The notes under the pieces were generated by a model. That model was not told the DNA's origin, did no database searches, and saw nothing but the letters and a program-made list of their open reading frames with translations. Shown here in pieces: positions 1,769 through 61,594 of a stretch of 64,000 bases of DNA. Position numbers and translations under genes: made by a program. How positions within the stretch are numbered: the first letter of the stretch is position 1; the number at the start of each line of letters is the position of its first letter. Source of the DNA: a virus (taxonomy: Duplodnaviria; Caudoviricetes); IMG/VR virus record IMGVR_UViG_3300027805_000006. One strand, given 5' to 3'.

Positions 1769-1837
1769 CTAATATCCCTCTGCGGGGTAACCTTACCGAT
1801 TTCTATTTACAGACAAAACAACCTCGTTTTGGGAGGG

Positions 1838-1860
1838 TGTATTTCATAATATGAAATACA
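1838..1860. terminator. 10-bp perfect hairpin after the chimeric ORF
   Basis: TGTATTTCAT-AAT-ATGAAATACA. Confidence 0.4.
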
Positions 1861-1862
1861 GG

Positions 1863-2267: not shown

Positions 2268-2440
2268 CTGTGTCTCCAGCAGAGCTGAACGAGCTGAAGT
2301 ATTTAGCGAACCGGGCGAGGGGTGCTGAATTTTACCTGGTGAAATGCAGGTTAGAGGATCTCGACGACCTACGCGTGAAGGTGATAGTGTGATGAAGTAT
2401 GTGTCTTGAGTTCATAAATACACTTCAAATGGAGAACATA

Positions 2441-17147: not shown

Positions 17148-18083
17148 TTATGCAGACATTTTAAAACTAATTGCAGGGTGAGGATCGTAGCCTTCAAGGA
17201 CGAAGTCTGCCATCTTGAAGGAATCGATATCACCTGAACTGTTGTTAATTACGAGGTTTGGTAAGGCACGAGGATTACGTTCTAACTGCTCCTCAACACC
17301 ATTAATATGGTCCTTATAGATGTGAACGTCTCCCATATTAATGATAAGTTCTGCAGGGGTATAGCCACATACACGTGCAAGCATATGTGTTAGAAGCGCG
17401 TACGACGCAATGTTAAATGGTAGCCCCAGCGCAGCATCTACAGAGCGTTGTGTCATCATACAACTTAGCATCTTGCCCTTTGAGACGTAGAACTGAGCAA
17501 ACATATGGCAAGGAGGAAGTGCCATTTGATCCAATTCTCCAACATTAAGGGCGCTAAGAATGATGCGCCGGTCAGTTGGGTTGTTCTTTAGTTTATTAAC
17601 CACAATGGAGAGTTGATCAACTTCTTCCTCAATAACTTTTGCACCATAGTACGCTGTGCCACCTTCTGGAAAGTGTAGAAAATCGTTATACCCGTCGACA
17701 GTATGCTTCTTCCATTTTCTCCATTGAACACCGTAAATGCGGCCAAGGTCTCCAGGAAATTTCGGCTTGTATAAAGACCCTGACGTCCCTTCTGCATTTG
17801 GTGACCAGATTGTCTTCTTGTTCTCATCGCGCGTGCCGTGCAAAATTTCTGCCAGCCGCCGCTCATCACCACTGCCCTCAATGAACCATAGAAGTTCAGA
17901 AAGAATAGACTTGAATGCCATCTTCTTTGTAGTGACTAAAGGGAAACCCTGAGTAAGGTCAATGTTCATTGAATGACCAAAACTAGAGAATGTACCTGTG
18001 CCAGTGCGGTCAGCCCTTTCCTCTCCTCTGTCTATGAGATGGTACAGAAGATCTAGATAATCTGCTTCAAAGGTATATGACAT
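17148..18083 (-). CDS. thyA: Thymidylate synthase (dUMP-specific)
   Basis: DRTGTGT, ALPPCH, QRSVD..GLPFNIASY (Asn specificity residue). Confidence 0.97.
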   Translation of the reverse strand: MSYTFEADYLDLLYHLIDRGEERADRTGTGTFSSFGHSMNIDLTQGFPLVTTKKMAFKSILSELLWFIEGSGDERRLAEILHGTRDENKKTIWSPNAEGTSGSLYKPKFPGDLGRIYGVQWRKWKKHTVDGYNDFLHFPEGGTAYYGAKVIEEEVDQLSIVVNKLKNNPTDRRIILSALNVGELDQMALPPCHMFAQFYVSKGKMLSCMMTQRSVDAALGLPFNIASYALLTHMLARVCGYTPAELIINMGDVHIYKDHINGVEEQLERNPRALPNLVINNSSGDIDSFKMADFVLEGYDPHPAISFKMSA

Positions 18084-18111: not shown

Positions 18112-19020
18112 CTAGGGCGAAGAATTATTCAGGTCGCTGCTGTCTTGTACTACCATTTCGTAAAGAGTTTTTACCTTTTTGGGGTCAAGGTTTTTTGCTG
18201 AAGTGAATACCGGTTCAATCTTAACGTACAGATCTCCACGCAGGCCAGGCTTCTTTAGGTCGTGTATCCAGTTGAAGTAGCCCTTGCCCTTTACCTTCAG
18301 GCGCTGGTTGATTGAAAATCCCGAAGGCACCCGCACCTGAAGTTTCTCGCTGTTAAAGTCAGACACAAGGATCCAAGCACCCAAAATAATGTCAAGTGCA
18401 TCGACCTGCATAGTGGTCTCAATATCGCCTGTCTCAATTACGACAACAGCTCGACCATTCATTGTCTCATGGTGCCAACCGCATTCAGATGCCGTTTTAA
18501 CCCTAAAGTCAGCATCGTGAATTCTTGTAATGATGTTTGCCGAAAGATTTTCAGTTACATCAATCTGTGTCCTATACCCGTCAGGAGTTCCTGGTGGTAC
18601 GTGTATGGTTTTTGAGCCGCCTTCAGGCAGTTGAACATCTATGGAAAAACCATCCGCTGCCTGCTTTAGTGTAACACCAGCCTGGAACTCCGTTACGTGC
18701 TTTACACCATGAAAGGGATTAAATCCTCCAAAGCCAGCCCTCCGCATCTGTTCAAACATCTGCTCAATGTCTGGCTGTCCTCGGAAATTTCCTTGCGACC
18801 CTTGTGGATCTCCGCCACGGTCAAAGATACTCCGCCTACGGACATCAGAAAGCGTTTCATACGCCTCTTTTATTTCTTTAAATTTTTCTTCTGCTTCCTT
18901 CTTTTCAGCTTCAGCAACCTTATCAGGGTGGTACTTGCTTGCTAGCCGCTTGTACGCCTTTTTTATTTCCTCATCGGTGGCATTTCGTGCCACACCAAGG
19001 ATTTCATAGTAATTTTTCAC
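18112..19020 (-). CDS. DnaJ/CbpA-like co-chaperone (J domain plus C-terminal domain, no Zn finger)
   Basis: NYYEILGV...YHPDK...[12 protein letters not shown]; C-terminal KGKG....GDLYV. Confidence 0.92.
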
Positions 19021-19028
19021 AGGGAGAC

Positions 19029-20405
19029 TTAAAAGGAAAGAGCCTTCAGTTCACGACGATACATCTCAACAGCAGTGTCTTTCATAATCTTATCCATCTC
19101 ATTCTTGAGGTCCTGTAGTTTCTTATTTAGTTCCTCAATTCTGTCACGTGTAAGAGACCAGATCTGCATTGAAAGAAGACGATCGTAATCATCAAACTTG
19201 TTCTCAAGAAGAATAGCGATAAGGTCCTTCTTTGAGGTATCACGAAAGACCTTCACGTTTGCGAGGTAGAAGCGGATGAAGCGGATAACCTCGCTTGCAT
19301 ACCGAATTTGCTCAGTAAGATCAGCGATGATGTGCTGCCGGCGCGCCTCCATCATTTGAACCCGCCACTTCACGAAGATGTCAATAATTTCTTCAGGGCT
19401 ACTGTAGCGCGTAAGAATGCCCTCAGTTGACCAGCACGTAATGTTCTCTGTATCCCTGCTTATTAGACCAAACTTCTTGTGAAGTTCTTCAGCATCCATT
19501 GCTGTAGTGCTACGAGGAACGCTGATGATGAACTCAAAGCCTTGTTCAGTTGAACGATCCTCATAGTCCTTGATGATCTCGGCGTCCTCAAGTTTATGCA
19601 GCCGCTCCTTGTATTGGTCAAGGTATGTTCCTACCGGAAGTTCAGTTATCTTGATGGTCGTGCTGTTTACAATCTCCATCTTGCCAGTAATTACCACCTG
19701 ACCAGTTTCAGAATTGCGCGAAACATCTCCAGAAAACCCGTTGAACCAAGGCGTAAGAGTACCAGGCTTTAGTTTCTTTCCAGCAAGAGCAGAAAGACAT
19801 GCATTGCGAACTTCATCAGGGTTGTAATTCATGATGAAGCAAGCATGACCAGTACCCGTGCCCTGAGCACCATTCACGAGCACCATCGGAAGAAGAGGAG
19901 CATAGGTCTTTGGTTCAATCTTTTCACCATCAACCTCGTGATGCTCGAGAATTGCATCATCAGCCTTAGGGAAAAGAGCACGAAACCAAGGAGACAACTT
20001 CGTTTCGATGTAGCGATGCGCAGCAGATTCAGCAGTAAGGCGGGAACCAAACTGACCTTCTGGGATGAAGAGGTTAAGGTTGTTAGAGCCTGCATAGTTG
20101 TTCGCCATTCCAACAATCGTTTGCGCCAGGCTTCCAGTGCCGTGGTGATAGTCAGTGGCTGCGGCTACCTGAGCAGCCAGGCGCTCAACTTGAATAAGAC
20201 CCGCATTTTCACCGCGGATAAGCGTGCCGTAGATTGCCTTCCGCTGAGATGGCTTTAGACCATCAGTTAGCATGGGAATAGATCGCACACCGTCATACAG
20301 CGAGAACTCCTTGAATGCAGTGTCGAAAAAGTGACGCATTGGAATGCGACGGGCGCTCAATTGATACTGATTTGGTGCGGTGCTCTTTTGTGCCATAGTT
20401 TTCAT
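19029..20405 (-). CDS. Type IIA topoisomerase medium subunit (T4 gp52 / GyrA-ParC-like)
   Basis: [26 protein letters not shown] (active-site Tyr), NGAQGTGTG. Confidence 0.96.
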
Positions 20406-20441
20406 GAATAGTTGGTGAATAGTTGGCTGAATGATATTATA

Positions 20442-22403
20442 TCACAAAGACTCAAGGATGTAATCCTCAAAGTTCTTTGCAGGAGTTTCTAGCCACTTCT
20501 TTCGGTCATTTGCACGTTCGGGATTAAATGCTAAGTCAACTGCCTGCTTGTCTTCCTCTCCCTCACATGTAATTTGGAAGAGGTATTGATCTAGATGTTC
20601 CATATATGGAATAAAGTCAGGAGTCTTCGTGGTACCCAAACCCTTGAAGAATCTATGTGACCAACCCTTCGTAGAAGCGCCTGGCCCATTTGCCCATTCC
20701 TTGAACTCGCGCTCTGTGAAGAATTCCAAAACGGTCTTGTCCTTCAGATATACCTTCACTGTAGGAGTACGGAGGATGTGGACGAAGCCCAGGCGGAAGA
20801 GCTCCGGCCAGAAGGTGTCGAACACGTTCATCAGCAGACCGGCGATGTGGGCACCGTCGACGTCAGCGTCGGTTGCGAAGGCGACCTTACCGAAGTTGAG
20901 CTCGGTGAGGGACTTGACTGGCTCGCCGATCTTCAGGCCGATGAGCGTCAGGATCTTCTGGATCTCGTTCGGCTCCGTCTTCTTGCCTTCCTTCTCGCGC
21001 TCCTTCTTCTTGTCGAGGCCGAGGACCCGACCGATGTCCTTCTCACGGACGTTGAGCGGCTTGCCCTTGAGCGGGAAGGTACCAATGTACGGGTTCTTGC
21101 CGCGAGCCGCGAAGAGGGACTTGGCAGCGGAGTCACCCTCGGCAAGGAAGAGAATGCACTTGTGCCGCTGGATGCGCTCTTGAGCATCTGCAAACTTATC
21201 AATGCGCCTGAAATTTACCTTGTCAGTTTCTTTATTGACCTTACGAAGATCGGCAAGGATTGCGGCTTGCTCCTTTGCTTGAACCCAATCAAGAATAGAC
21301 TTGATGATTTCGGTCTTTACAAGTTTGTTGATGAACTTGTCTGGAACTGTCCAAGATGTTTTCCATTCAGAAGAAGGAGAAATCATATTCTCCTTGGTCT
21401 GAGATGAGAAGCGCGGACGATTAATGCTCGCGCTAATATAGATCCGCATATGCCCACGAATATCACCGGGGGATACCTTAACCTTATGCCGCTTTTCGAT
21501 GTGGGCGCGCAGCGAATCCACAATCTGATTAATTGCGTAGGTAACGTGGGTGCCACCTTGAAAAGTCTCAACTGAATTTACGAAACTGATCTGCTCAAAA
21601 CCATCAGACTTCGTAATACCGACTTTCCAGTCGGGCGTTTCGTCATACACGTATTCGGGATCATACAGCGCGATGTAGTCATCAAAACCACGCGTCATGA
21701 TCCTATCGCCATTGATATAGAACTTAACGCTTGGGTTTGTAGCCGCAGCATCAACAACCTTCTTGACAATTCGAAGGCGATGATCTTCATCAAGCCCCTT
21801 TAACTTGAAGAACTCGTAGTCAGGAGTAAAGGTGATCTTTGTGAAATGCTTGTCGTGATCTCTTACCTTCGGTTCAGAGCGCTTGCGCATTCCTTCAGTA
21901 AATTCCTGCTTGAACAACTTCTTGCCATCGGCGCTCTCAATCTTGAAACTGGTTGAAAGCACGTTGGTCAGTGTAGAGCCTACACCGTTAGTGCCAATCA
22001 ACTGCTGATCTTCTTCATCATTGAAGTTTGAACCAGCACGGAGATTTGAAAACACGGTTTCGGCAACGTACCTGCCAGTTTGCGGGTGAATTTCTACTGG
22101 AATACCACGACCATTATCCAGAACTGAAATTGAACCATCATCAGAGAGTTCAACCCTGATGCTGTCCATTACATCAGAAGCCCGGCGGCTTTCATCAATG
22201 GCATTGTCAAGGATTTCAGAGAAGATCTTAATGAATGCTGGGATAGTTGTAATTTCCCGCTGCATCATCTTCTTTGAAGCGGTATCATAGACCCACTCAG
22301 TGGATGTCTGGAGGGAGGTTGAACCCGCGTACATACCAGTTCTTTTCCTGATGTGCTCAATTTCATCCAACACCTGGTACGTTTGTGCAATTTGCTTTGA
22401 CAT
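20442..22403 (-). CDS. Type IIA topoisomerase large subunit (fused T4 gp39+gp60 / GyrB-ParE-like)
   Basis: EILDNAIDE, DNGRGIP, GTNGVG, EGDSA, PLKGK, DADVDG, KGLGT. Confidence 0.97.
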   Translation of the reverse strand: MSKQIAQTYQVLDEIEHIRKRTGMYAGSTSLQTSTEWVYDTASKKMMQREITTIPAFIKIFSEILDNAIDESRRASDVMDSIRVELSDDGSISVLDNGRGIPVEIHPQTGRYVAETVFSNLRAGSNFNDEEDQQLIGTNGVGSTLTNVLSTSFKIESADGKKLFKQEFTEGMRKRSEPKVRDHDKHFTKITFTPDYEFFKLKGLDEDHRLRIVKKVVDAAATNPSVKFYINGDRIMTRGFDDYIALYDPEYVYDETPDWKVGITKSDGFEQISFVNSVETFQGGTHVTYAINQIVDSLRAHIEKRHKVKVSPGDIRGHMRIYISASINRPRFSSQTKENMISPSSEWKTSWTVPDKFINKLVKTEIIKSILDWVQAKEQAAILADLRKVNKETDKVNFRRIDKFADAQERIQRHKCILFLAEGDSAAKSLFAARGKNPYIGTFPLKGKPLNVREKDIGRVLGLDKKKEREKEGKKTEPNEIQKILTLIGLKIGEPVKSLTELNFGKVAFATDADVDGAHIAGLLMNVFDTFWPELFRLGFVHILRTPTVKVYLKDKTVLEFFTEREFKEWANGPGASTKGWSHRFFKGLGTTKTPDFIPYMEHLDQYLFQITCEGEEDKQAVDLAFNPERANDRKKWLETPAKNFEDYILESL

Positions 22404-22470: not shown

Positions 22471-22499
22471 TTTCACCTGGTGGTTTTTACCAGGTGAAA
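22471..22499. terminator. 11-bp hairpin between the kinase and topoisomerase genes
   Basis: TTTCACCTGGT-GGTTTTT-ACCAGGTGAAA. Confidence 0.55.
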
Positions 22500-22520: not shown

Positions 22521-23228
22521 TCAACCCATTCCGGCTGCTACTCTGGTGTTTCTAAGAGCAATACCTTCTTCAACCATCTTAACTGCCTTGGGAAGATCAT
22601 CCCCGGGAACTACAAGATCCCAATTGAAAAGATTAATCCACCGGCGCTCATTACTAGTACAGCTTACTACCCTGCGCTGATGCTCAGTTGCTAGTTGGGA
22701 AAGAGTTCTCTTTGCAATTTCTGCACCTGTTTGAAAGAACTCATTGGTGTATTTTCCCGGTGATGGCTGCAACATATCAACAACATCCCAGGAATTTGCA
22801 ATGGTTCGATGGAGCAGGCGCTGAAGGCGCTGTTCTTCCACACAATGAACGTAGATCTTGAAAATATCCCAACCATTCTGGAAACACTTCTTCATATAGA
22901 TTTCCAAGCCATTGGGCTCAAGTACAACAACCGGAGGTGTATCTGCTTCCATCTTCTTTTTCATTTCTACGTGTGTTACACCATAACGCGTCTTATTGAA
23001 TTCTACAAGTTCAAAAAACAGACCATCGGCTTCTGCTTCCTTCGACTGTTGGTTGCTAATAAAGTTGTAATCAATACCTTCTTTTTCATCTCGCCTTGGG
23101 TGACGTGTGGTTGTACTGACGATCCTGCCAAATCCCTGCTTTGAAACAAGTTCATTCAGCAAGTAACTTTTACCGCTGCAGGTAGGGGCAGTAATGGCTA
23201 TAAGAGTTGGTTTATTGAACTTTAACAT
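22521..23228 (-). CDS. Guanylate-kinase-like NMP kinase
   Basis: APTCSGKS P-loop; VSTTTR.PR..E.EG.DY.FIS; YGVT. Confidence 0.85.
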   Translation of the reverse strand: MLKFNKPTLIAITAPTCSGKSYLLNELVSKQGFGRIVSTTTRHPRRDEKEGIDYNFISNQQSKEAEADGLFFELVEFNKTRYGVTHVEMKKKMEADTPPVVVLEPNGLEIYMKKCFQNGWDIFKIYVHCVEEQRLQRLLHRTIANSWDVVDMLQPSPGKYTNEFFQTGAEIAKRTLSQLATEHQRRVVSCTSNERRWINLFNWDLVVPGDDLPKAVKMVEEGIALRNTRVAAGMG

Positions 23229-23246
23229 ATTAATTATCCCTTCGGC

Positions 23247-24443
23247 TTATTGATTATGCTCTGCTAAAAATTTCCCAGCGGTGCGTAGTGATTGAATAAT
23301 GACTGCCCACATATCAAGATATTGAAATGTACCGCATCGCCCAATGAATGTCACTCCCCTTTTATTTTCTGCCATATCGACATATCGATTGTAGAGGGCA
23401 CGATGGGGACAGTCCTTTTCTGTTGTCTTTACGGGGTAGTACCGCTCCAAAGAGTTGTCACGGTAATCACAGGGCTCCTCTACAGTTAGAGTTGTCCAGT
23501 GGGGGTTATCTCCGTGCGACGGCAAGTTTTTCCATTCTGTAACTCGCGTATGAGGACCAGAATGGGTAAAATTTAAAACTGATGTGCTTAGCACCCGTGG
23601 TAGTGGTACAGAGTACGTGTTCATCTTAACCGATCGCCAAGGTAGTTCTCCTAAAGAACAATCGAAATACATATCAATTGGTTCAGAAGTAAAAATGTGC
23701 TTAAATTCCTCTTTTTTCTGCACTTCGTCTCTTGAGCAGTTTAACTGTACGCTAATGTTTTCGTGATCTAAAATACGACGGAACATTTCAGTGTAACCAT
23801 CTTTTGGCAGAAACTGGTACTTATCTTTTGGAAAATAGAGATAACTACGTGTTTCAACGTTTGTTGGAATCCTTGCCGCAACTGAGGCAGGCAGTTCTTC
23901 AAGTTCTAGCCCCCACATCTTCTTCGTGTAAGGCGCAAAAAAGAGATCACATAGTTCTTTTCCAACTGAGTTTTCAACGTGCTGACGGCTGTTGGTTACG
24001 GTTGGGTGGTGCTCAACCAACGTCTCAAGGAAGGCTGCATGCGAGCCCTTCTTGTAGTCGATCATAGCACCTTCTGCATCGTAGTCGATCTGGTCGTTGC
24101 GATCTGCCCAGACATCGAACTGATCAACGAAGACTTCCTCGATGGTATCGTGGTTGATGGGTAGAGGAACACACGTACCATTTGGCAGAAGAGCCTCAAC
24201 CTCGTGCTTGTACTCAACCCAATCAGTAAAGCGTGATGCCCATTTCTGCACATCGTCGTTGGACGTGTGCCATAGATGGGGGCCATACTTATGAACGCGG
24301 ATGCCGTGCTCATTCACGTAGTCATATGCATTTCCAGCGATATGGTCACGCTTGTCAATAACAAGCACCTTTTCACCAGCCTCAGCCAGTTCTCGTGCAA
24401 CAGTAGCACCCGCAAATCCAGCGCCGACAATTAAAATTCTCAT
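23247..24443 (-). CDS. glf: UDP-galactopyranose mutase
   Basis: IVGAGFAG FAD motif, DKRDHIAGNAYD, HKYGPH, FFAPYTKKMWG, RVTEWK, RYYP, GRCGTFQYLDM. Confidence 0.95.
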   Translation of the reverse strand: MRILIVGAGFAGATVARELAEAGEKVLVIDKRDHIAGNAYDYVNEHGIRVHKYGPHLWHTSNDDVQKWASRFTDWVEYKHEVEALLPNGTCVPLPINHDTIEEVFVDQFDVWADRNDQIDYDAEGAMIDYKKGSHAAFLETLVEHHPTVTNSRQHVENSVGKELCDLFFAPYTKKMWGLELEELPASVAARIPTNVETRSYLYFPKDKYQFLPKDGYTEMFRRILDHENISVQLNCSRDEVQKKEEFKHIFTSEPIDMYFDCSLGELPWRSVKMNTYSVPLPRVLSTSVLNFTHSGPHTRVTEWKNLPSHGDNPHWTTLTVEEPCDYRDNSLERYYPVKTTEKDCPHRALYNRYVDMAENKRGVTFIGRCGTFQYLDMWAVIIQSLRTAGKFLAEHNQ

Positions 24444-24467
24444 TTGAATTATCCTTAGTTACAAGAT

Positions 24468-24704
24468 TTAAATATCCTCTACAGCATACTCAATTTCTTC
24501 GGATGAAACTGGAGACTTTAGAATTACGCTTAGAACGGTGTGAATTGACTTTGCTACCGCCAGCTCGCCTTGGTCCTCGCGAAACTGCCGCAGAACATCT
24601 AGGTTGTACGTAATAAGCGGAACATCAGGCTTATCGTGCAGGAAGAAGGAAAGAACTTCCTGTCCGTCTTGATTAGAAACCTGCTTAAAAAATCGATAGT
24701 TCAT
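24468..24704 (-). CDS. Hypothetical protein (78 aa)
   Basis: ATGA-coupled to the glycosyltransferase gene. Confidence 0.7.
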   Translation of the reverse strand: MNYRFFKQVSNQDGQEVLSFFLHDKPDVPLITYNLDVLRQFREDQGELAVAKSIHTVLSVILKSPVSSEEIEYAVEDI

Positions 24705-25867
24705 TTTTGAGCCTCCAGTACTGCTTTGATTTCTTGCTGCTGAACGTTCTTGTCCAGCGGGTGAATTGAATAGATTGCCTGCTTTTGTGCATCAGCAATG
24801 TGTGAGAGTTCGCTGTCACTAGCGTGAATAAGGTCAGTCGCCTTTAGATCAATCAGAGGGAAGTCTTTGCCATAATAAACTTCAAGTTCTTTCTTCTCTC
24901 CGATAAGAATACAGTTTGCATCTGCAGTTTGCTGGGGACGTGAACGCCACCACCCGCTGCCAGCGTGTTCATAGCCGGGCATCAGACACGCCCAGTCACG
25001 GTAAAACACCTCGCACATCTGGTCTTCGGTAAGCCGCTTCTGTGTTTCTGCCTTTGAGCCATACAGATCAACTGGCCAGGAACCAATTGTACCTTCCTCA
25101 TCATTCTTAGGATTGCCAGTATATCCCTGCTTCTTTAGCCACTTCTGCGTCTTTGATTGGACCAAACTTGCAAAGTTGAATCGACGCTCCTTCTTTGGTG
25201 CAGGCCCAGCAGTATATGATAGAAGTGATGGCGTAAAGGTTGAGTCTTCTACTCCTTCGTGAAGGAAATCACCTGGCTTGCGGTTGCGGTGATACGGGTT
25301 AGGGTTGAAGGTGTAGATGCGGTCACGCGGGTATTTTACCGCATCAAAGAGCAGGTGCGGACCATAATTCTCAGGATCGTTCAAGTGTGTAGTGTCAAAA
25401 GCACATACCAACATCCGATTCTTTCGAGTGATGATAGTATTAATTGCCTGAAGATAGATCTCCTTGTGCTTAGTGACTTCCTCGATTGTGGTCTTGTTCA
25501 CACCTAATATAAAGTCACAGGACAGTTCTTCCCATTTTTGGCACTTTTCGAGTCCTTTGAACAAATCGGGTGCTTGCCAATCGTCAACCCCAAGAATGCA
25601 ATCAGGACGCTGGCTGATTGCCCACAGTCCTTTAAATGTATGTGTTGCAACCAGTTGGCGAGGACCGGCAATATAAACAATTACTTCATCATATGAGGAG
25701 AGATCTTCACCGATTTCAACCTCACGCTGCTCAACCTGATGCCCCATATCTACAAGCGCATTAAATAGACTGTAATGCGCAGGCACCACCTTTAAATTCA
25801 TTTTGAGATAGTGCTTACGCACACTCTGTGATTTATTCATACCGGTGATCAAGATTTTCTTCTTCAT
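24701..25867 (-). CDS. GT-B glycosyltransferase resembling T4 beta-glucosyltransferase; probable DNA glycosyltransferase
   Basis: KILITGMN..KVVP...LFNALVDMG..V...DLSSYDEVIV parallels the recalled T4 BGT N-terminus (KIAIINMG..KTVP...LFKVISEMG..V...DVNDYDRLIV). VDDW falls at the catalytic Asp position; ACLMPG...WRSR..T parallels AALIIG...TLR.WE. Confidence 0.6.
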   Translation of the reverse strand: MKKKILITGMNKSQSVRKHYLKMNLKVVPAHYSLFNALVDMGHQVEQREVEIGEDLSSYDEVIVYIAGPRQLVATHTFKGLWAISQRPDCILGVDDWQAPDLFKGLEKCQKWEELSCDFILGVNKTTIEEVTKHKEIYLQAINTIITRKNRMLVCAFDTTHLNDPENYGPHLLFDAVKYPRDRIYTFNPNPYHRNRKPGDFLHEGVEDSTFTPSLLSYTAGPAPKKERRFNFASLVQSKTQKWLKKQGYTGNPKNDEEGTIGSWPVDLYGSKAETQKRLTEDQMCEVFYRDWACLMPGYEHAGSGWWRSRPQQTADANCILIGEKKELEVYYGKDFPLIDLKATDLIHASDSELSHIADAQKQAIYSIHPLDKNVQQQEIKAVLEAQK

Positions 25868-25910
25868 TTTATTCCTTTAAAGTAAGGGCCCCACACCTAT
25901 ATACCTAGGT

Positions 25911-25924
25911 ATTATACACGTTTT
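25911..25924 (-). promoter_or_regulatory. Early/middle-type promoter AAAACGTGTATAAT
   Basis: Extended -10 TGTATAAT upstream of the GT-glf-kinase operon. Confidence 0.55.
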
Positions 25925-25987
25925 AAAAATTAATACAGAATTTTTTAAAGGTCGAAAAAATGCTCACCCGCCTTGGCTGAAGCATTC

Positions 25988-26206
25988 TTAAAACCTCATC
26001 ACTTCATCTACTACAAGTTTATCTGCCTCTAAGAGTGCAATCTTTTCACTGAGTTCTTCTGGACTTCTGACATATAGAAACTTGTTTGATGCTAGCGTCT
26101 TTTTTGGGTCAGCAGAGCAGTAGATAAATGTCACGTATCCTTGCTGCTTTGCTGTGATGAAATCTTCCTGTAGTGTCTCAGCAGTACTGAGAGATGTAAC
26201 CTTCAC
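25988..26206 (-). pseudogene. Probable C-terminal remnant of a BGT-like glucosyltransferase
   Basis: VTFI...DPKK....FLYVRSPEELSEKIALLEAD resembles the recalled T4 BGT tail VMLI...DTKH....FYVNNRAELIDRVNELKHSD; only 72 aa. Confidence 0.4.
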
Positions 26207-26778
26207 GATAGAGCCTCACTCAAGATGACATCCTTGGGCTTGAACCCGCCCAGGGCCGGGTCAGTAACACTAATGATGCGCTTATCACGAATAATGGAGC
26301 GATTAAATGCAGCAACAAATCGATTTTGCTCTTCCATTCGGTCGTCTTCGCCGCCAAGACTTTCGCCATCATCTACAAAGTGCCGAGATACTGAAAAATC
26401 CTCAGTGAGCAGGATTAGGCGAATATCAGCAGAGTCTAGGTGGTGATTTTTTTCAAAGTCAAACACGTAATCACCGCTATAGGCCCTATACATTGGTGAA
26501 TATACTGCCTCACCTAGGTGCCAGCGGTCAAAGATAATTCTGGCACCACTCTTTGCCATGATCATGGAATTCCTAAAACTTTCCTGTTGGTAGTGATATG
26601 ACTGCAGGCTTGTATTTGGAACTCCAGTAATAGGAGAAGAATGTGCATAGGCATTTAACTTCTTTGGCTTACTAAAGTGAATAACTTCGTAATAACCAAG
26701 GGTATTCAAAATACCCTCAATAAGAGAACTTTTTCCAAGGCGGTCGAGGCCTTCAATCGCAAATACGTGCTTCATCAT
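26203..26778 (-). CDS. Thymidylate-kinase-like dNMP kinase
   Basis: IEGLDRLGKSS P-loop; IFDRWHLGEAVYSPMYR. Confidence 0.85.
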   Translation of the reverse strand: MMKHVFAIEGLDRLGKSSLIEGILNTLGYYEVIHFSKPKKLNAYAHSSPITGVPNTSLQSYHYQQESFRNSMIMAKSGARIIFDRWHLGEAVYSPMYRAYSGDYVFDFEKNHHLDSADIRLILLTEDFSVSRHFVDDGESLGGEDDRMEEQNRFVAAFNRSIIRDKRIISVTDPALGGFKPKDVILSEALS

Positions 26779-27083
26779 ACCTCCAACGTTAGGTCATATT
26801 GACCAGTTTTTGTGTTTAAAACTACACCAGTATCGTCCTCAATGGTGGCATTCAAATCCACATTTGCATTGCTGTCATCTAAGAAGTCACTTCCGAAATC
26901 ATTTTCGATTATGTTGATTAGTTCGAATGCTGCCGTGGAATAAACTGAATTACCCCCTAAGCGAACACTACACACTAATGCAGTGATAAGTTCAAGTTGA
27001 TTTACATTGATTTGAAGTATGATGGAGCCATTCCCAATTACTGGTGCATCATCATCTTCGCTGTATCTTGATGAGATAATCAT
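26775..27083 (-). CDS. Hypothetical acidic protein (102 aa)
   Basis: ATGA-coupled at both ends. Confidence 0.7.
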   Translation of the reverse strand: MIISSRYSEDDDAPVIGNGSIILQINVNQLELITALVCSVRLGGNSVYSTAAFELINIIENDFGSDFLDDSNANVDLNATIEDDTGVVLNTKTGQYDLTLEV

Positions 27084-28204
27084 ATAAATCCAATTCCATT
27101 AGTTTTCTTTTGGTGAAGTTGCGTATTGAAAAGTTCTGCAAGCGTAAATTCGTTTCCATCTGGAAGTTCCTTATCTACGCCAGCTTCTTCATACACCTTC
27201 TTAGATTCATCGCGGGTAAGTGCCCTAAACTGCAGAACGTCAAAGCAACGTCCTTCACGTAGAAGAGCGCTGTCAATGTCCCTGATGTTTGGTAGGTTGG
27301 TTGAGAAGACTAGTTTCTTGTCAGCGGCAGACACAAGACCGTCTGATACATTGAGGAACTTATGCATCATTGAATTGCCATCTTGACGTGCAGAGAGAAA
27401 GGCATCTGCATCTTCCATCACAAGGAAGCTACAATCATCCTCAATAAACCCGGCAAAGAAGTCATCAGTGTTGAGAACCTTTTCATCATAGGCAACCTTA
27501 GCATCTCCGCCGGCTCGATGAATTAAATTCTTAATGAATGTTGTTTTGCCAGTGCCTGGCTGACCAATAAGAATTAAAACGTTTGCACTTGAATTTAGGA
27601 AATCTTCAATATACTCATTTAGCCCCTTGTTTAACCAAGGATAGGCGCTCTTTAACGCAGGGCGGTAGTTCAGCGGGACGGAAGTGCTATCACCACGTGC
27701 ATTATACACCCACTCGATCAGGTTCTCAGCACGCTTAAACTTATTATCAAAGTACTTTTCCCATTCTGAGCAAAAGGCTACACTTCCAACAAGATTTACA
27801 TCAATCTTTCCTTTTGCAGAATTCACAGTAAGAAGCCCATCATCATACTGCACAACAACCTTTGTGCTGTGGAAGAAGGTAAATGCCTCAAACTTCATAT
27901 CCACAACCCACTTGTTGAGCCTAAACTCAACAGGTGTAATCCAAGTGCAAGAAACATCTAGCGTCTGCACCTTGGATAAGAAACGGTTGCGCAGAAAATC
28001 TGCAAATACCCAGTCCTCTGAGCCATATACTCCCAGGACTACTTCTGGGCGAGCGATTTCTTGTTTGAACATATGAACATCCTCAAATATATTATGTGTA
28101 TGATGGTTTAGTTTTCGGCGCCGCATTTGTTTTACACTCCGTTTAATTGTACTTCTTCTTTTCCTAGAAAGTTTTGATATAAGCGAATTAATTGAATCAC
28201 TCAT
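27080..28204 (-). CDS. AAA+ ATPase
   Basis: GQPGTGKTT (Walker A), LVMEDAD (Walker B), FSTN, ALLREGRCFD (Arg finger). Confidence 0.88.
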   Translation of the reverse strand: MSDSINSLISKLSRKRRSTIKRSVKQMRRRKLNHHTHNIFEDVHMFKQEIARPEVVLGVYGSEDWVFADFLRNRFLSKVQTLDVSCTWITPVEFRLNKWVVDMKFEAFTFFHSTKVVVQYDDGLLTVNSAKGKIDVNLVGSVAFCSEWEKYFDNKFKRAENLIEWVYNARGDSTSVPLNYRPALKSAYPWLNKGLNEYIEDFLNSSANVLILIGQPGTGKTTFIKNLIHRAGGDAKVAYDEKVLNTDDFFAGFIEDDCSFLVMEDADAFLSARQDGNSMMHKFLNVSDGLVSAADKKLVFSTNLPNIRDIDSALLREGRCFDVLQFRALTRDESKKVYEEAGVDKELPDGNEFTLAELFNTQLHQKKTNGIGFI

Positions 28205-28213
28205 TTGGGCACC

Positions 28214-29965
28214 TTATAATGTCATTTCTTTTAGTGATGACTTAAAAAGAGTTTGAAATTCATTTGACCACTCATTTGTTTTTGCTGTCCATACTCTCTG
28301 AACCGCACTATCTAGAATGTACGTAGTTGCCCAATCCTCCTGACTTCTGACCGACCGACCTGCACCTTGTACGACCTTCATCAGTGCCTGCAGTTGGTAG
28401 ATATCTGGAAAGTTATCTAAAATTGTTTGAATTCTTTTGTCACCAAGAGATGCATAAGGCATTTTAACTAAAACTTGAAACCTGCTCAAATCTCCTGGCA
28501 GGTCGATGCCTTCAAAACCAGAAGGAGTAACCAACACTGCTGGACCTTTAGAGTGCTGCTTGAAGTCTGCTAGAATAGTTGCTAACTTTTCTCCACGTAC
28601 GTGCTCAAATATCTTGAAGTTTCCTTTTTCTTTTCTAAGTGAAGCGCAGACTGTTTCAGTCACTACGAAACTTGGGGTTAGGATAATTCCTCTTTCTTCT
28701 TTCTCAGTGTGGTGCTTTACAATCTCTGTCACAGTCCTGCTGAGTTTAGTGACAGTTTCAGTTTCCTGCATGCTTCGATAGTTAAGAGACTGTGGCTTGT
28801 AGAAGATAACCTTCTTGTTTTCGGGTAGAAACTGGGGGTCAAGACGGATATGCTTCGTCTTGCCTGGAAGTGTCATTGTGCGTTTTGCAAACTGCTCGCT
28901 GATAGTAGCAGACATTAACAGATTATGTTCAGCGTTATCAAGCACTTCAAACATATCTCCAATGAAGATGGGCTTTACGTGTATTTCATTTTCACTTTGA
29001 CGTGCAGAAGGATCTTTCTTCTTGTACTCAAACACGTGAGGGTACTGAAAGGTAAAGAGGTCATCAATCTTGCAGCCAAAATTATAGTACTTCTTTGCAA
29101 GTTTCTGCAGTTTTAGGTACTTAGATGCATTGCGAATATTTCTATCTGCATTTGACTTAGCTGTTTCACTAATAAGGTTATAAACCTCAAGCAGCTGCTT
29201 TAACCAAGTTGAGTAATTTTGCTCAGTGATTTGCCCTTTTATGAGTGCATCGCGCATCACCTTTAAGTCCCTGAAGATGTCGGTATTACCAAGCGAAAGA
29301 TTATCATTTACCTCATCGGCACATTGCGCCAACCGCTTCTCAGAAATATAGATGGCATTGTGGTCAGTAAAAAGGTCATTCAGCAGGTGTGCCTCGTCAA
29401 ACACAGCAACGGTGCGCCGGGGTAGAGGTGCCTGCGCGTACATCCTATCAATAAAGTAGAAGGCATAGTTCGTAATCAAATGACGAGAAGTTGCCTTTAG
29501 GGCACGTGCCTTTGCATACTCGCATGAATTGCAGTAGGTATCAATAAAGTTCTGCATTCCATTTTTTCTAAAGAGTGTGATTGCACAATTTTCGGCAGTT
29601 TGTGGCTCGTCGTCGGTGCTTAGAGCGCTGCACTCATAGTTTGCTGCACCTTTCAGGAGAAGAAAGGTATTGTCACCTGCCTTCTCAGCAAAGGTCTGAT
29701 GGTACTGGTCAAGCAGAACATTTGTTGCAGAGAGCAAAAATGATGCATTCTCCCTCGTTGCTGGATTTTTGATGCTGTGAATAACTTCAGCAGCAACCGT
29801 TCCAATAATTGACTTTCCAGTTCCCGTTGGTGCCGATAGCACCACGTTCTTTGCCTCTTCTTCTAGGAAGGCTTCACAAATTCTAGATACGTGATTTACC
29901 TGATTATCCCTCGGTGTAAATCCAAATTTACTAAATGCTTCTTCAATTTGCTTCTGATATGACAT
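28214..29965 (-). CDS. DinG/YoaA-like SF2 helicase
   Basis: APTGTGKS, Fe-S Cys cluster (YEC..ENC..CNSC), FDEAH, EGIDLPG, QGAGRSVRS.EDW. Confidence 0.92.
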   Translation of the reverse strand: MSYQKQIEEAFSKFGFTPRDNQVNHVSRICEAFLEEEAKNVVLSAPTGTGKSIIGTVAAEVIHSIKNPATRENASFLLSATNVLLDQYHQTFAEKAGDNTFLLLKGAANYECSALSTDDEPQTAENCAITLFRKNGMQNFIDTYCNSCEYAKARALKATSRHLITNYAFYFIDRMYAQAPLPRRTVAVFDEAHLLNDLFTDHNAIYISEKRLAQCADEVNDNLSLGNTDIFRDLKVMRDALIKGQITEQNYSTWLKQLLEVYNLISETAKSNADRNIRNASKYLKLQKLAKKYYNFGCKIDDLFTFQYPHVFEYKKKDPSARQSENEIHVKPIFIGDMFEVLDNAEHNLLMSATISEQFAKRTMTLPGKTKHIRLDPQFLPENKKVIFYKPQSLNYRSMQETETVTKLSRTVTEIVKHHTEKEERGIILTPSFVVTETVCASLRKEKGNFKIFEHVRGEKLATILADFKQHSKGPAVLVTPSGFEGIDLPGDLSRFQVLVKMPYASLGDKRIQTILDNFPDIYQLQALMKVVQGAGRSVRSQEDWATTYILDSAVQRVWTAKTNEWSNEFQTLFKSSLKEMTL

Positions 29966-30942
29966 TAATTCTTCCTTGGTAGAAAGATCTTTGCACTCTC
30001 TTCTTCATCGCCACCAAAAAAAGCCTTTACCAAAGATTTCCAATATGGTGAAAGATTGTGAAAATCATTGATGCTTTCAAAATTAAATTTTTCTGGATAA
30101 CCACAGTCTCGCCAGCCGCTCTCAATATTTGCGAGCGTTGCTGCGATTGTCTCATCAAACTTATCCATCTCAATCATAGAAACTTCAGAGGTGCTTTCAT
30201 CAGCAATTACCTTATCTGCCATTTCATAGTGCCGTGAATAGAGATGCATCGAGCCGGCGTTATGGAAGTAATAGCCAAGTTGAAGGTCTGGGTATACCTC
30301 CCTAAGTTGTAGCATCATACATTCTTGCAGCATAGTAAATTGGAAAACATCATTCGTAAAACCCAAAATTACGTCATTGCTGCGCATATTGACAATTAGA
30401 TGTAGTTTATCTTCTCGAATAAACCACTGCAGCGTCAGTGTGCAGGCTACATCCTTATTTCCAGCGTGGCGGTCAGTAGGCAGATGAATGTTCATAACTG
30501 CCTGGCGGCTATCTTTATCAGCAGTTAGGATGTTAATAGTTTGGTGCCATTGATTAATCTTGTTTTCGCCGAAGTAGAGAGCCGGTAGAATTGAATGACC
30601 AAACATACGGTGACCGTAGTTTGAATTCACGGTGCCAGCAGGATAGTTGTCTTGATTTCCAGAGTTGATGATACCTTCCCAAAATTTTGCATATGGCACA
30701 ATTCCATCCACCGTATTTTTACCAGTAAGATACCAAATAAACTCACCTAGCAGATACTTTACATTTGTCTTTCTTGCAGGAAAAGTAACTACTCGATTTC
30801 GAGGGTCAGTAAGGGTAATATTGTAGTTGAGCAACTCGCGGGTTTCTGAACCGCGCGGGTTAGAAACCATGCCATTTTCTCTCAGGTTGAAAAGGCACGC
30901 CCGGAAATCACTGTTGAGGCGGAAGGATGGTGTATTTTCCAT
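29965..30942 (-). CDS. dCMP hydroxymethylase/hydroxylase-type thymidylate synthase homolog
   Basis: SRQAV, DVACT (catalytic Cys), MRSND..GFTND with Asp at the specificity position as in T4 gp42, H.AGSMHLY. Confidence 0.85.
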   Translation of the reverse strand: MENTPSFRLNSDFRACLFNLRENGMVSNPRGSETRELLNYNITLTDPRNRVVTFPARKTNVKYLLGEFIWYLTGKNTVDGIVPYAKFWEGIINSGNQDNYPAGTVNSNYGHRMFGHSILPALYFGENKINQWHQTINILTADKDSRQAVMNIHLPTDRHAGNKDVACTLTLQWFIREDKLHLIVNMRSNDVILGFTNDVFQFTMLQECMMLQLREVYPDLQLGYYFHNAGSMHLYSRHYEMADKVIADESTSEVSMIEMDKFDETIAATLANIESGWRDCGYPEKFNFESINDFHNLSPYWKSLVKAFFGGDEEESAKIFLPRKN

Positions 30943-36573: not shown

Positions 36574-37240
36574 TATAAAGCCAATCTGACGGAAAGGGAA
36601 GTCAATTATGGCAGTCAATCGTAAGTTTGTCGTCAAGCACGGCTTAGATGCAAACGCAATATCAATAGATAATCTTGGCGCATTAGGCTCAACGTTTGGT
36701 TTAGCCGGTGGTCATACATTAACACTTAGTACTACTAACACAACTTCTGTTACACTGCCAACTTCTGGGACACTAGCAACAACTGCTGATCTTGGTGGGT
36801 ATCAACCACTTGATGCTGACCTAACGTCAATTGCAGGTCTTGCCGGAACGTCAGGATTTCTAAAGAAAACGGCAGCAAATTCCTGGTCTCTTGATACAAA
36901 TACATATCTCACAGGCAATCAGACAATAACTTTTTCTGGCGATGCAACAGGTTCTGGCACTACAGCAGTTGCACTTACGTTAGCCAACAGCGGTGTGACT
37001 GCTAGTACATACAAATCGGTGACGGTTGATGTGAAGGGACGGGTAACGGCAGGAACAAACCCAACAACTCTTGCTGGTTATGGAATTTCCGATGCACAGC
37101 CACTAGATGCAGACCTTACAGCGATTGCTGGTCTTGCAGGCACATCTGGATTTCTAAAGAAAACGGCAGCAGATGCCTGGGTGCTTGACACAAACACATA
37201 TCTAACTGCAAACCAAAGCATCACTATTTCGGGTGATGTA
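34651..37240 (+). repeat. 294-nt (98-codon) module present twice in the 34096 gene and twice in the 36608 gene
   Basis: GATGC(A/T)GA(T/C)CT anchors at 34669, 34963, 36812 and 37106; spacing 294 within each gene. Confidence 0.9.
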
Positions 37241-42973: not shown

Positions 42974-43022
42974 ACAATAGGGCGCTTGAATAAATACATA
43001 TGTCACTCTTTAGAGACCTACT

Positions 43023-48757: not shown

Positions 48758-49729
48758 ATGCCTGTTCCTTCAGGTCCGCTAAGTCTTGGTAATATTCAGA
48801 CAGAGTACGGTGGCTCAAATCCGGCGTCGTTGTCTGAGTACTACAGAGGTGCTTCATCCAGTTCTACGGTACCAAATCAAACATCTGCTGGGACTTATGG
48901 TACAATTCCCACGTCTGGTGCAATTTCAATGGGTACTTTTAGGAGCAAGGGCAAGTTCGTATTTAATGCCACAATTTCCACAAACACAACTGACTATAAT
49001 ATTTCAAGTGCTGCAACCTCAGCGGGTTGGGATGGCAGTGAAACACTTATTGCTTCAGTAACAATCAATGCTGGCGTATATGTTTATGCCACAACGACTT
49101 CTGCATATGCATTAGATACTGGAAGCAGTTTTCCAGGTGGTCACTATATTGCAATTACAAACAATGGGTTAATAGTTGGAAGGGGCGGGGCTGGCGGAAC
49201 AGGTGGTGGTTCCAATGCGTCATCTGCACTTGCCGCTGTTGCTGGAAGTGCTGGTGGTCCTGCGCTAAGAGCACAGGTTGCTGTCGAAGTTACCAACAAT
49301 GGCACCATTGGTGGTGGAGGTGGTGGTGGTGGAGGTGGTGCATCTGTATGGTTGGCAGATGGTGACAAGTCAGGCACTACTACATACAGCGCCTCTGGTG
49401 GAGGGGGCGGGGGAGGGCGTGCAAATGGCACGGCAGGTGTCAGAGGAACAGCGGCGGGTACTGATATTATAGCAAATAATGGTGCTAATGGAACTGCTGG
49501 TGCTCTTACAACCGTTGGGGCTGGTGGTGCAGGCTCAACGGGCTTTGGATGGGCAGGAGGGAATGGTGGTGCTGGTGGTGCTCTAGGCACTGCAGGCTCT
49601 TCTGGTCTTGCATCGACTGGTGGAACAAGCGGTGGTGTGGGGGCTGGAGGTGGTGGAGGTGCTGCAGTTGTTGGAAATGCAAATATTACGTGGGTGGTAA
49701 CTGGCACTAGGCTGGGCGCCCTTACATAA
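48758..49729 (+). CDS. gp38-like glycine-rich tail fibre adhesin 1
   Basis: GRGGAGG, VTNNGTIGGGGGGGG and GGGGGGG motifs as in T2/S16 gp38; SGPLSLGNIQTEYGGSNP N-terminus. Confidence 0.8.
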   Translation: MPVPSGPLSLGNIQTEYGGSNPASLSEYYRGASSSSTVPNQTSAGTYGTIPTSGAISMGTFRSKGKFVFNATISTNTTDYNISSAATSAGWDGSETLIASVTINAGVYVYATTTSAYALDTGSSFPGGHYIAITNNGLIVGRGGAGGTGGGSNASSALAAVAGSAGGPALRAQVAVEVTNNGTIGGGGGGGGGGASVWLADGDKSGTTTYSASGGGGGGGRANGTAGVRGTAAGTDIIANNGANGTAGALTTVGAGGAGSTGFGWAGGNGGAGGALGTAGSSGLASTGGTSGGVGAGGGGGAAVVGNANITWVVTGTRLGALT

Positions 49730-49768
49730 TATTCAGATAAATATTACACTTCCAGAATAAAGTCAAAA

Positions 49769-51541: not shown

Positions 51542-51555
51542 TTAGGAGATTTTAA

Positions 51556-57658: not shown

Positions 57659-57659
57659 A

Positions 57660-57863: not shown

Positions 57864-57884
57864 ATTCAGTCCTCCAGAATGTTA

Positions 57885-61054: not shown

Positions 61055-61594
61055 TTATTTGGTGATCTTCCTAAGGGTGATGTATGTTGTCTCTACATCA
61101 CCATCCCATTGCGTAGAATGGGTTTCTACGTCCCAAAGAATTTCTTGCTTTCTTTGAGAGATTATAAATCTTTTCCACTCGTAGATATTTGTCTTGATTT
61201 TAACCTCAGCCTCACTTGATGAGGCTATAAGTGTCATATGAATTTCATCTACTAGATTTTTTTCTAGTGCTTCATCATAGACAGATGCTCCGCCCGCCAC
61301 CCAAATATGTTTCTGCTTTTTCCCAACATATTTTTCAAGAACGTCAATTGAGGAAACATACTTGACGCTTTTATGCAAAACCGGAGTTTTTGATAAGACG
61401 ATATTCTTGCGATTTGGAAGACCATTTGGTCGCTTAAGGCTCCTAAATGTAGTATTTCCCATAAGAACCGTGTCACCTATGGTGAGAGCCCTAAATCTCA
61501 TTAGATCATTTTTCAGGTTTGGATATGCTAACCTACCATCAGACCAACCAATGGTACCTACACCATCTACTGCTAGAATGAGTTTTACGGCCAT
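61055..61594 (-). CDS. folA: Dihydrofolate reductase
   Basis: LILAVD..GTIG..., DL.RF..LT.G..V.MG..TF.SL, LPNRKNIVLS, WVAGGASVY. Confidence 0.93.
   Translation of the reverse strand: MAVKLILAVDGVGTIGWSDGRLAYPNLKNDLMRFRALTIGDTVLMGNTTFRSLKRPNGLPNRKNIVLSKTPVLHKSVKYVSSIDVLEKYVGKKQKHIWVAGGASVYDEALEKNLVDEIHMTLIASSSEAEVKIKTNIYEWKRFIISQRKQEILWDVETHSTQWDGDVETTYITLRKITK

Follow-up and report, generated by a model that had tools for sequence, protein, structure and literature searches.

A predicted galactofuranosyl-5-hydroxymethylcytosine pathway with its own UDP-galactopyranose mutase in an uncultured jumbo T4-like phage

The window (the whole stretch of DNA that was analysed, 64,000 nt) carries on its minus strand two gene units that include a thymidylate synthase (TS) homolog, two P-loop kinases, a GT-B glycosyltransferase (GT) and a UDP-galactopyranose mutase (Glf). 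All genes named in an earlier, sequence-only reading of this DNA were confirmed in place on that strand. The features are:

29965..30942, minus strand: TS homolog, predicted dCMP 5-hydroxymethylase; 325 aa (Pfam Thymidylat_synt, 1e-22)
28214..29965, minus strand: DinG/Rad3-like helicase within the TS-homolog operon (Pfam Helicase_C_2, 2e-22; ResIII)
27080..28204, minus strand: AAA ATPase (Pfam AAA, 2e-09; phrog_14322)
26775..27083, minus strand: 102-aa ORF overlapping each neighbour by 4 nt; no family match in Pfam or PHROG
26203..26778, minus strand: thymidylate-kinase-family P-loop kinase, candidate 5hmdCMP/dTMP kinase (phrog_761, 2.8e-12)
25988..26206, minus strand: 72-aa ORF; no family match in Pfam or PHROG, homologs in the related loci L028, L031 and L033
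25911..25916, minus strand: TATAAT -10-like box, read from the sequence, in the 120-nt gap 5' of the GT gene
24701..25867, minus strand: GT-B glycosyltransferase, predicted 5hmC-DNA galactofuranosyltransferase (phrog_14998, a family of unknown function; AF2 model)
24468..24704, minus strand: 78-aa ORF with a 4-nt overlap with the GT stop; no family match
23247..24443, minus strand: Glf (Pfam GLF, 1e-51)
22521..23228, minus strand: guanylate-kinase-like P-loop kinase (Pfam Guanylate_kin, 4.5e-17)
22471..22499, minus strand: terminator-like hairpin at the end of the GT-Glf-guanylate kinase unit (11-pair stem, 5 GC pairs)
17148..18083, minus strand: canonical thymidylate synthase, thyA (phrog_160, 8.6e-106; L143, C146, D169 and N177 canonical)
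61055..61594, minus strand: DHFR (Pfam DHFR_1, 3.4e-26)

The first unit is tightly packed and runs from the TS homolog through the helicase and the AAA ATPase to the thymidylate-kinase-like gene. The second follows the TATAAT box (25916-25911) and runs from the GT through the 78-aa ORF and an intact Glf gene to the guanylate-kinase-like gene. The sequence-only reading had described this second unit (22521-25867) as a GT resembling T4 beta-glucosyltransferase (BGT), a small ORF, glf and a GMP-kinase-like gene, and had noted nearby a dTMP-kinase-like gene and a second TS homolog with a GFTND motif (LGFTND in the alignment), in addition to a normal thyA and DHFR; all of these were recovered. As for its single promoter at 25911, the TATAAT box is there in the 120-nt gap; its -35 is weak, which is why it is missing from a consensus promoter scan. 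The box is a plausible, putative promoter of the GT-Glf-guanylate kinase unit.

Several of these genes keep their places in related phages. In the jumbo-phage relatives L026-L033, the helicase is kept between TS and GT, and the guanylate-kinase-like gene lies 1.4-2.4 kb downstream of the GT; the AAA ATPase is kept in L028, L029, L031 and L033. The 78-aa ORF has a homolog in L031 only (43%), and L018 has an ORF of similar size in this position. A Megablast search of GenBank phages with the region gave no match; the sequence is also found on a 152-kb ENA contig.

The residues of the TS homolog were read from an alignment with E. coli ThyA, T4 gp42 and RB69 gp48. Its catalytic Cys (DVAC T) aligns with ThyA C146, N177 is replaced by Asp in LGFTND, in the same column as T4 gp42 D179, and at the L143 position, three residues N-terminal to that Cys, there is an Asp, which gp42 has too. 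Asp in place of N177 goes with cytosine rather than uracil as the substrate, and an acidic side chain in the L143 position lets water in, which gives a hydroxymethyl and not a methyl product. The best PDB relatives are the CMP hydroxymethylase MilA (3.6e-31) and T4 dCMP hydroxymethylase (1.4e-16); true thymidylate synthases rank below these two. The protein has a C-terminal extension of ~70 aa and belongs to a divergent clade that carries such an extension. From these residues and relatives it is predicted to be a T4 gp42-type dCMP hydroxymethylase. It also keeps D169 (RSND), whereas RB69 gp48 and RL38J1 gp216 have N169 (RSQN). The D169N change is diagnostic of the 5-hydroxy-dCMP synthases RB69 gp48, DLP3 gp80 and RL38J1 gp216, a predictor that rests on one paper (PMC13326640). 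Among 66 TS homologs linked to the GT in IMG/VR loci, 64 show the D/D/D signature, all but one or two keep D169 and none has N169. Because D169 is kept both here and in nearly all linked homologs, the base is predicted to be 5hmC and not 5-hydroxycytosine (5hoC).

The thymidylate-kinase-like protein itself scores 18.5 bits against Pfam PF02223 (cut-off 27), and many relatives at 58-70% identity carry this domain; the gene is kept 5' of the GT in relatives. It was also considered as a homolog of RB69 gp45 and rejected as such, since the likeness is confined to the P-loop. The guanylate-kinase-like protein matches Guanylate_kin (PF00625) with 62.8 bits (cut-off 25.2) over profile positions 3-135 of 182, followed by a C-terminal extension of ~90 aa unrelated to the profile, and PDB guanylate kinases match it at 5e-11.

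The AF2 model of the GT (pLDDT 95.2) has a GT-B fold. T4 BGT tops the Foldseek list against the PDB (1qkj, 3.4e-7) and comes first by VIA-align (Z 17.3, 291 residues, rmsd 3.5), followed by T4 AGT (Z 16.3), with other GT-B enzymes within ~1 Z of BGT. On the model, both structure searches thus name T4 BGT as the closest fold, by a small margin, in agreement with the BGT-like label of the sequence-only reading, which had named Foldseek as the check. At the sequence level no Pfam family was matched at E<=0.01, hence no Pfam T4 beta-GT (GT63) profile, and the usable hhalign alignment between the GT family and BGT is local, joining the N-terminus to BGT residues 1-81 with a probability of 54%. A nearly invariant D96 follows the strand 91-94, as D100 of BGT, its catalytic Asp at the end of the fourth N-domain strand, follows IYYLFT, the two being compared by strand position only. 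The family comprises 563 proteins in 90% clusters and 435 representatives at 50% identity.

The mutase assignment of gene 23247..24443 is well supported by its sequence. Glf scores 175.9 bits against Pfam GLF (PF03275; cut-off 26.3) and matches NAD_binding_8 (1.9e-18), with the GxGxxG motif of the N-terminal FAD-binding Rossmann fold present as GAGFAG. All of its closest PDB relatives belong to the UDP-galactopyranose mutases (3hdq, 3.8e-73). The alignment with E. coli Glf shows no change, in E. coli numbering, at H56, Y151, W156, R170, Y181, N268, R278, E298, Y311, R340, Y346 or D348; among these, Arg170/278/340, Tyr151/181/311/346, Trp156 and Asp348 are substrate-binding and catalytic residues of the mutase structures. 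The protein thus shares family, full active-site set and FAD-binding motif with the bacterial enzymes (E. coli K-12; D. radiodurans, 3HDQ). Those cellular enzymes feed O-antigen or cell-wall galactan, whereas this one is phage-encoded beside a DNA-type GT, where it is predicted to supply UDP-galactofuranose.

Linkage was counted in 80 IMG/VR loci with GT homologs, found from the closer GT homolog set. Of the 74 loci with sufficient DNA 3' of the GT, 64 have Glf there in the same orientation, in most cases overlapping or no more than 25 nt away, and a gp42-type TS lies upstream of the GT on the same strand in 57/62; since the loci are related, these counts are not independent events. The co-occurrence of glf with a dCMP-type TS, put forward as a check by the sequence-only reading, is found across these loci. 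In L020, TS-GT-Glf stands beside genes 44/62/regA/43/uvsX/41, and Glf-less relatives have the order 42-x-GT-uvsX, which is the T4 42/beta-gt/uvsX slot. On a quick IQ-TREE phylogeny of the GT, Glf linkage requires one change (0/500 shuffles as low), the Glf-less GTs forming one derived clade. Phage C48C1 has a Tet_JBP dioxygenase directly 5' of GT-Glf and no TS gene, and L052-type loci read ThyX-GalE-GT-Glf, an order that suggests a donor route from UDP-Glc through UDP-Galp to UDP-Galf. Among ten long proteins with this GT domain, which are distant homologs, nine have it fused to a C5-cytosine DNA methylase. The cultured Aeromonas phage 25 (160-kb phage class) has gene 42, alc and denA together with the same GT-Glf pair, and the two-gene cassette is also present in the cultured Aeromonas phages phiAS4 and Aes012 and in cultured Erwinia phages such as FBB1. 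The gene 42/uvsX synteny, the TET/JBP neighbours and the methylase fusions together suggest, by context, that the GT may act on 5hmC in duplex DNA.

Taking the alignments and the modelled GT together, we consider it probable that the locus encodes a pre-replicative cytosine hypermodification in an uncultured jumbo T4-like phage, with galactofuranosyl-5hmC as the product. The TS homolog would turn dCMP into 5hmdCMP, as its residues and relatives suggest. The thymidylate-kinase-like and/or guanylate-kinase-like enzyme, with host NDP kinase, would then give the triphosphate for incorporation into DNA, by analogy with T4 gp1. Glf would convert host UDP-galactopyranose to UDP-galactofuranose, and the BGT-like GT-B enzyme would join the galactofuranosyl residue to 5hmC in duplex DNA through the oxygen of the hydroxymethyl group. 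A beta linkage would be expected if the enzyme has kept the inverting mechanism of BGT, with D96 as base. By extension from T-even biology, such a base would be expected to block restriction and CRISPR nucleases, and might evade defences tuned to glucosyl-5hmC. The sequence-only reading had sketched the same flow, from the mutase to a furanose donor to a DNA GT working on cytosine modified by way of the TS homolog. On comparative and modelled grounds this scheme is supported by the active-site signature, the fold, the synteny in ~80 loci, the TET/JBP and GalE variants and the methylase fusions. No homolog of the dCTPase (T4 gp56), gp1, GalE, dCMP deaminase, TET or MazG-like proteins was found in 78 kb of the >330-kb genome.

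The GT might instead add a pyranose from the host pool (UDP-Glc or UDP-Galp) to 5hmC, Glf serving another client such as a second-step sugar or virion or host-envelope glycans. T4 BGT, the closest fold, does use UDP-Glc, and a Glf-less clade exists within the same GT family. We nevertheless judge this unlikely: the 64/74 loci with Glf just 3' of the GT come from very divergent phages, Aeromonas phage 25 included, and often have overlapping stop and start codons, the GalE-GT-Glf order fits a dedicated donor line, and the Glf-less clade is a derived one. Since a dedicated donor-making Glf adjoins the GT, the sugar is predicted to be galactofuranose and not glucopyranose.

Less likely again is a different furanose, for example arabinofuranose or N-acetylgalactofuranose, from a sugar whose ring a mutase of the Glf type can contract. 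UDP-GalNAc is a substrate of some bacterial mutases of the Glf family, and the PDB relatives include 4mo2; RB69 and DLP3 are known to carry arabinofuranosyl cytosines (PMC13326640). The arabinose route of those phages, however, uses other enzymes, without Glf, and no pentose-donor genes were found in the window. Galactose is likelier than arabinose, the other sugar named in the sequence-only reading, because a bona fide UDP-glucose 4-epimerase (GalE) homolog directly precedes GT-Glf in some relatives.

That the GT has a target other than DNA, be it LPS or teichoic acid of the host, a protein of the virion or a small molecule, and that Glf is an auxiliary metabolic gene, appears very improbable. 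Many GT-B enzymes of nearly equal Z-score act on lipids or small molecules, and phage Glf was treated as a host-supporting gene in an earlier paper (PMC6630229). Against this, the genes are located in a replication/nucleotide module, the GT is linked to a gp42-type TS or TET/JBP, and its relatives occupy the beta-gt slot or are fused to C5 DNA methylases. Least probable of all is a 5hoC base of the kind made by RB69, DLP3 and RL38J1, in which an ether bond would join the sugar straight to C5. The sequence-only reading had allowed 5hoC beside 5hmC; we rejected it. The sole published proposal of a Glf-linked DNA pathway does concern 5hoC (PMC13326640), and the TS homolog, with its C-terminal extension, sits in a divergent clade. 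Yet this protein and nearly all linked homologs keep D169, none of them shows the diagnostic D169N, and the TET/JBP partner in C48C1 makes hydroxymethyl and not hydroxy bases.

The predicted galactofuranosyl-5hmC pathway resembles the 5hmC glucosylation of T-even phages (T4 gp42, gp1, gp56, alpha-GT, beta-GT) in the gp42-type signature, in a GT-B enzyme whose best structural match is T4 BGT and whose relatives lie in the 42/beta-gt/uvsX slot, in the phage nucleotide kinases nearby and in its presumed anti-restriction role. It differs in that the GT is only ~13% identical to BGT and lacks a Pfam BGT match, a donor-making Glf is encoded beside it, the TS homolog carries a C-terminal extension and has MilA, not gp42, as its nearer relative, and thymidylate-kinase-like and guanylate-kinase-like enzymes take the place of a recognisable gp1, with no dCTPase found in the 78 kb.

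For Rhizobium phage RL38J1 (Pootjesviridae), glycosylated 5hoC made with Glf-derived UDP-Galf has already been proposed (Lee et al., NAR 2026, PMC13326640). Common to the two systems are a TS homolog, a nucleotide kinase, a GT-B enzyme and a phage Glf as proposed UDP-galactofuranose supplier, the Glf proteins being ~34% identical. In RL38J1, however, the TS homolog has N169 as a 5hoC synthase, where D169 stands here; Glf lies far from the GT (gp84 and gp215), where the two are adjacent here; and the linkage would be a direct C5 ether, where it is predicted to pass through the hydroxymethyl here. No homolog of the window GT was found anywhere in the RL38J1 genome, gp215 included. This weakens the claim of a new pathway in the sequence-only reading: Glf-fed DNA glycosylation as such had been proposed before, and the predicted galactofuranosyl-5hmC cassette is a variant and not a new kind of pathway.

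The GTs associated with 5mYOX/TET and ThyS in phages are also T4 BGT-like GT-B enzymes acting on 5hmC, many of them near ThyS and some with a donor-making sugar epimerase as partner; their products carry hexose, HexNAc or heptose (Burke et al. 2021, PMC8256090; Pyle et al., bioRxiv 10.1101/2023.12.21.572611). The TET/JBP-GT-Glf order of C48C1 and the C5 methylase fusions of distant GT homologs recall these systems. A text search of the Pyle et al. preprint found mention of neither a mutase nor a furanose. Our literature search likewise gave no chemical report of furanosyl-5hmC and no paper tying Glf to DNA modification in Aeromonas phages.

With slightly less assurance than for the pathway itself, we favour the view that galactofuranosyl-5hmC occurs in nature as a DNA base not described before, and that its source is a conserved GT-Glf cassette, widespread among T4-like and jumbo phages from the environment and shared by cultured phages of Aeromonas and Erwinia. 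The sugars on its cytosines determine which restriction, CRISPR and type IV systems a phage can evade, and also which DNA tools can be used on its genome. If the prediction is true, galactofuranosyl-5hmC would extend the short list of natural hypermodifications of DNA and be the first case of 5hmC carrying a furanose. Defences specific for glucosyl-5hmC would find in it a separate target or be blind to it, and enzymatic 5hmC labelling would gain a new donor/transferase pair. Given the size of the GT family, many T4-like phages of fresh and marine waters could have the modification, and the presence of the cassette in the cultured Aeromonas and Erwinia phages makes the prediction directly testable.

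The modification genes are arranged in two tight operons on the minus strand, and every gene named in the sequence-only reading was found there. Operon A runs from the thymidylate synthase (TS) homolog through a DinG-like helicase, an AAA ATPase, a 102-aa ORF and a thymidylate-kinase-like (TMK-like) gene to a 72-aa ORF, with genes that overlap or nearly abut. It is separated by a 120-nt gap from operon B, which comprises the glycosyltransferase (GT), a 78-aa ORF that shares 4 nt with the GT gene, the UDP-galactopyranose mutase gene (Glf) and a guanylate-kinase-like (GK-like) gene. The promoter previously placed at 25911 matches a TATAAT box in this gap, for which promoter activity is plausible.

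Features of the two operons and related genes of the window
29965-30942, minus: TS homolog, operon A
26203-26778, minus: TMK-like gene, operon A
25916-25911, minus: TATAAT box, in the 120-nt gap between the operons
24701-25867, minus: GT, 388 aa, without Pfam match
23247-24443, minus: Glf
22521-23228, minus: GK-like gene
22499-22471, minus: terminator-like hairpin, end of operon B
19029-22403: topoisomerase II subunits
17148-18083: canonical thyA
61055-61594: DHFR

The TS homolog was aligned with E. coli ThyA, the window ThyA, gp42 of T4 and of Aeromonas phage 25, and RB69 gp48. The catalytic Cys is kept, Asp occupies the L143 position, D169 is kept and N177 is replaced by Asp (E. coli numbering), which is the residue set of T4 gp42. 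The D169N substitution carried by 5-hydroxy-dCMP synthases (Lee et al., PMC13326640) is present in RB69 gp48 and RL38J1 gp216 and absent from the window protein. Its closest solved structures are MilA CMP hydroxymethylase (3.6e-31) and T4 dCMP hydroxymethylase (1.4e-16), both ranking above true thymidylate synthases. The predicted product is 5hmdCMP; of the two bases initially considered, 5-hydroxymethylcytosine (5hmC) is thus retained on the gp42 pattern, while 5-hydroxycytosine is disfavored by the missing D169N.

Glf is an intact UDP-galactopyranose mutase, as first proposed: the protein matched the Pfam GLF family (1e-51) and PDB 3hdq (3.8e-73), and neither its FAD motif nor its active-site residues vary in the alignment. 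The GT was modeled with AlphaFold2 from a 78-sequence alignment (pLDDT 95.2). T4 beta-glucosyltransferase (BGT) entries ranked first among Foldseek PDB matches (3.4e-7), and an exhaustive VIA-align search placed T4 BGT first (Z 17.3) and the T4 alpha-GT second (Z 16.3), but the margin is small, other GT-B enzymes scoring within about 1 Z. In a profile alignment, GT residues 3-81 pair at low confidence with BGT 1-81. The nearly invariant Asp96 follows strand 91-94, as the catalytic D100 of BGT follows its own strand. Taken alone, these results show a GT-B enzyme nearest to phage DNA glucosyltransferases, and no more.

The argument for a putatively DNA-directed GT is carried by comparative genomics. 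The GT family is large, and its members adjoin Glf in the GenBank Aeromonas T4-like phages 25, Aes012, Aes508, phiAS4 and others, as well as in Erwinia phage FBB1 and phage C48C1. Besides GT-Glf, Aeromonas phage 25 encodes alc, denA and a gene 42 with the D169/D177 signature. Among 80 IMG/VR loci with GT homologs, Glf lies downstream on the same strand in 64 of the 74 having sufficient downstream DNA, mostly overlapping or at most 25 nt away; in 57/62 a same-strand TS homolog is located upstream, at a distance of 0.4-6.6 kb, and the linked TS homologs carry Asp/Asp/Asp at 143/169/177 in 64/66 and N169 in 0/66, all of these being counts over related loci and not independent events. In one locus (L020), TS-GT-Glf sits next to genes 44, 62, regA, 43, uvsX and 41. 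Glf was lost in a single GT clade, arranged 42-x-GT-uvsX, the position that beta-gt has in T4.

Other loci combine the GT with different partners. In C48C1 (OQ984149; L001:7580-11027), a Tet_JBP dioxygenase (PF12851, 3.3e-17) is immediately upstream of GT-Glf, and this phage lacks any TS-family gene. Tet_JBP dioxygenases provide the second established way for phage DNA to acquire 5-hydroxymethylpyrimidines, and the arrangement looks like a post-replicative form of the GT-Glf sugar cassette. Among ten long proteins with a domain of this GT family, nine are fused to a C5-cytosine DNA methylase (P0165, P0168, P0175, P0177, P0179, P0182, P0185, P0187 and P0201); two fusions additionally contain a UDG-superfamily domain, and in two the methylase harbors an intein with a LAGLIDADG endonuclease. 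TS of two clades, TET/JBP and methylase fusions are different partners that converge on C5-hydroxymethylated DNA cytosine as the GT acceptor. A further type (L052:6093-10636) encodes in order a 336-aa unknown protein, ThyX, UDP-glucose 4-epimerase, GT, Glf and ribonucleotide reductase, with no gp42-type TS nearby. Read in this order, the genes trace how the donor UDP-galactofuranose is made from UDP-glucose. Since the epimerase sits in these GT-Glf loci, galactose is favored over arabinose, the other sugar suggested at the outset. At a GT-Glf pair without a nearby TS gene, an IS605 OrfB/TnpB gene (Cas12f-like TNB domain) was seen about 3.7 kb upstream (L074:5076-6311).

The GK-like protein is a genuine member of the guanylate kinase family, extended at its C-terminus by an additional region, and the TMK-like protein, judged via its relatives, belongs to the thymidylate kinase family. 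By analogy, these kinases may phosphorylate 5hmdCMP; the 78-kb contig shows no homolog of T4 gp1, and the RB69, DLP3 and RL38J1 clusters likewise hold 'nucleotide kinase' genes. Searches of the same contig revealed neither a dCTPase nor a dCMP deaminase nor GalE. In a 358-kb relative (L018:13899-14303), a PRA-PH/MazG-like pyrophosphohydrolase gene, a candidate dCTPase, directly follows the GK-like gene; the window showed no equivalent of it.

Together, synteny, TS residues and the GT model support the core of the sequence-only reading, a mutase-fed furanose placed onto modified cytosine in DNA, and narrow it to galactofuranosyl-5hmC, which we consider the probable modification. The scheme is the one by which T-even phages glucosylate 5hmC, but the sugar differs. 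The pathway is new only in part, as Glf-fed DNA glycosylation was already put forward, on computational grounds, for Rhizobium phage RL38J1 and further Pootjesviridae, with 5-hydroxycytosine as base and galactose as first sugar (PMC13326640). In contrast to RL38J1, the base predicted here is hydroxymethylated, the GT family has no homolog in that phage, and GT and Glf are tightly coupled. A metagenome mining study describes ThyS- and TET-linked GT-B enzymes with epimerase partners, and mentions neither mutase nor furanose (Pyle et al., bioRxiv 10.1101/2023.12.21.572611). An earlier genome paper interpreted a phage Glf as a host-supporting gene (PMC6630229), and no chemical report of furanosyl-5hmC was found in the literature. 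The prediction can be tested in cultured Aeromonas and Erwinia phages.

The window is a portion of a 78,389-bp virus contig (L021), to which gene searches extended; the same phage sequence occurs on a 152-kb ENA contig, and GenBank phages gave no near DNA match. T4-type genes lie on both sides of the modification genes, and long-tail-fibre proteins are encoded in the surroundings. Two giant ORFs (2121 and 1909 aa, 36608-48752) precede three successive paralogous tail-fibre-like genes (phrog_10745/phrog_11439, 48758-53034). ClpP-like protease, T4-type RNA ligase and PhoH homologs are found at window 1148-4390 and L021:13414-14172. A DnaJ-type chaperone (J domain and DnaJ_C, 18112-19020) lies between the thyA and topoisomerase genes, and a Ro60/TROVE protein with a vWA domain (61594-63210) adjoins DHFR. 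PrkA kinase (PF08298/PF06798) and a DUF444 protein, beside a conserved 494-aa protein (phrog_35217), form a phage-borne trio of bacterial stress type (54700-59843). About 10 kb ahead of the window, the same contig encodes a protein homologous to Tad3, an inhibitor of Thoeris (PF25185, 4.3e-35; L021:3108-3653).
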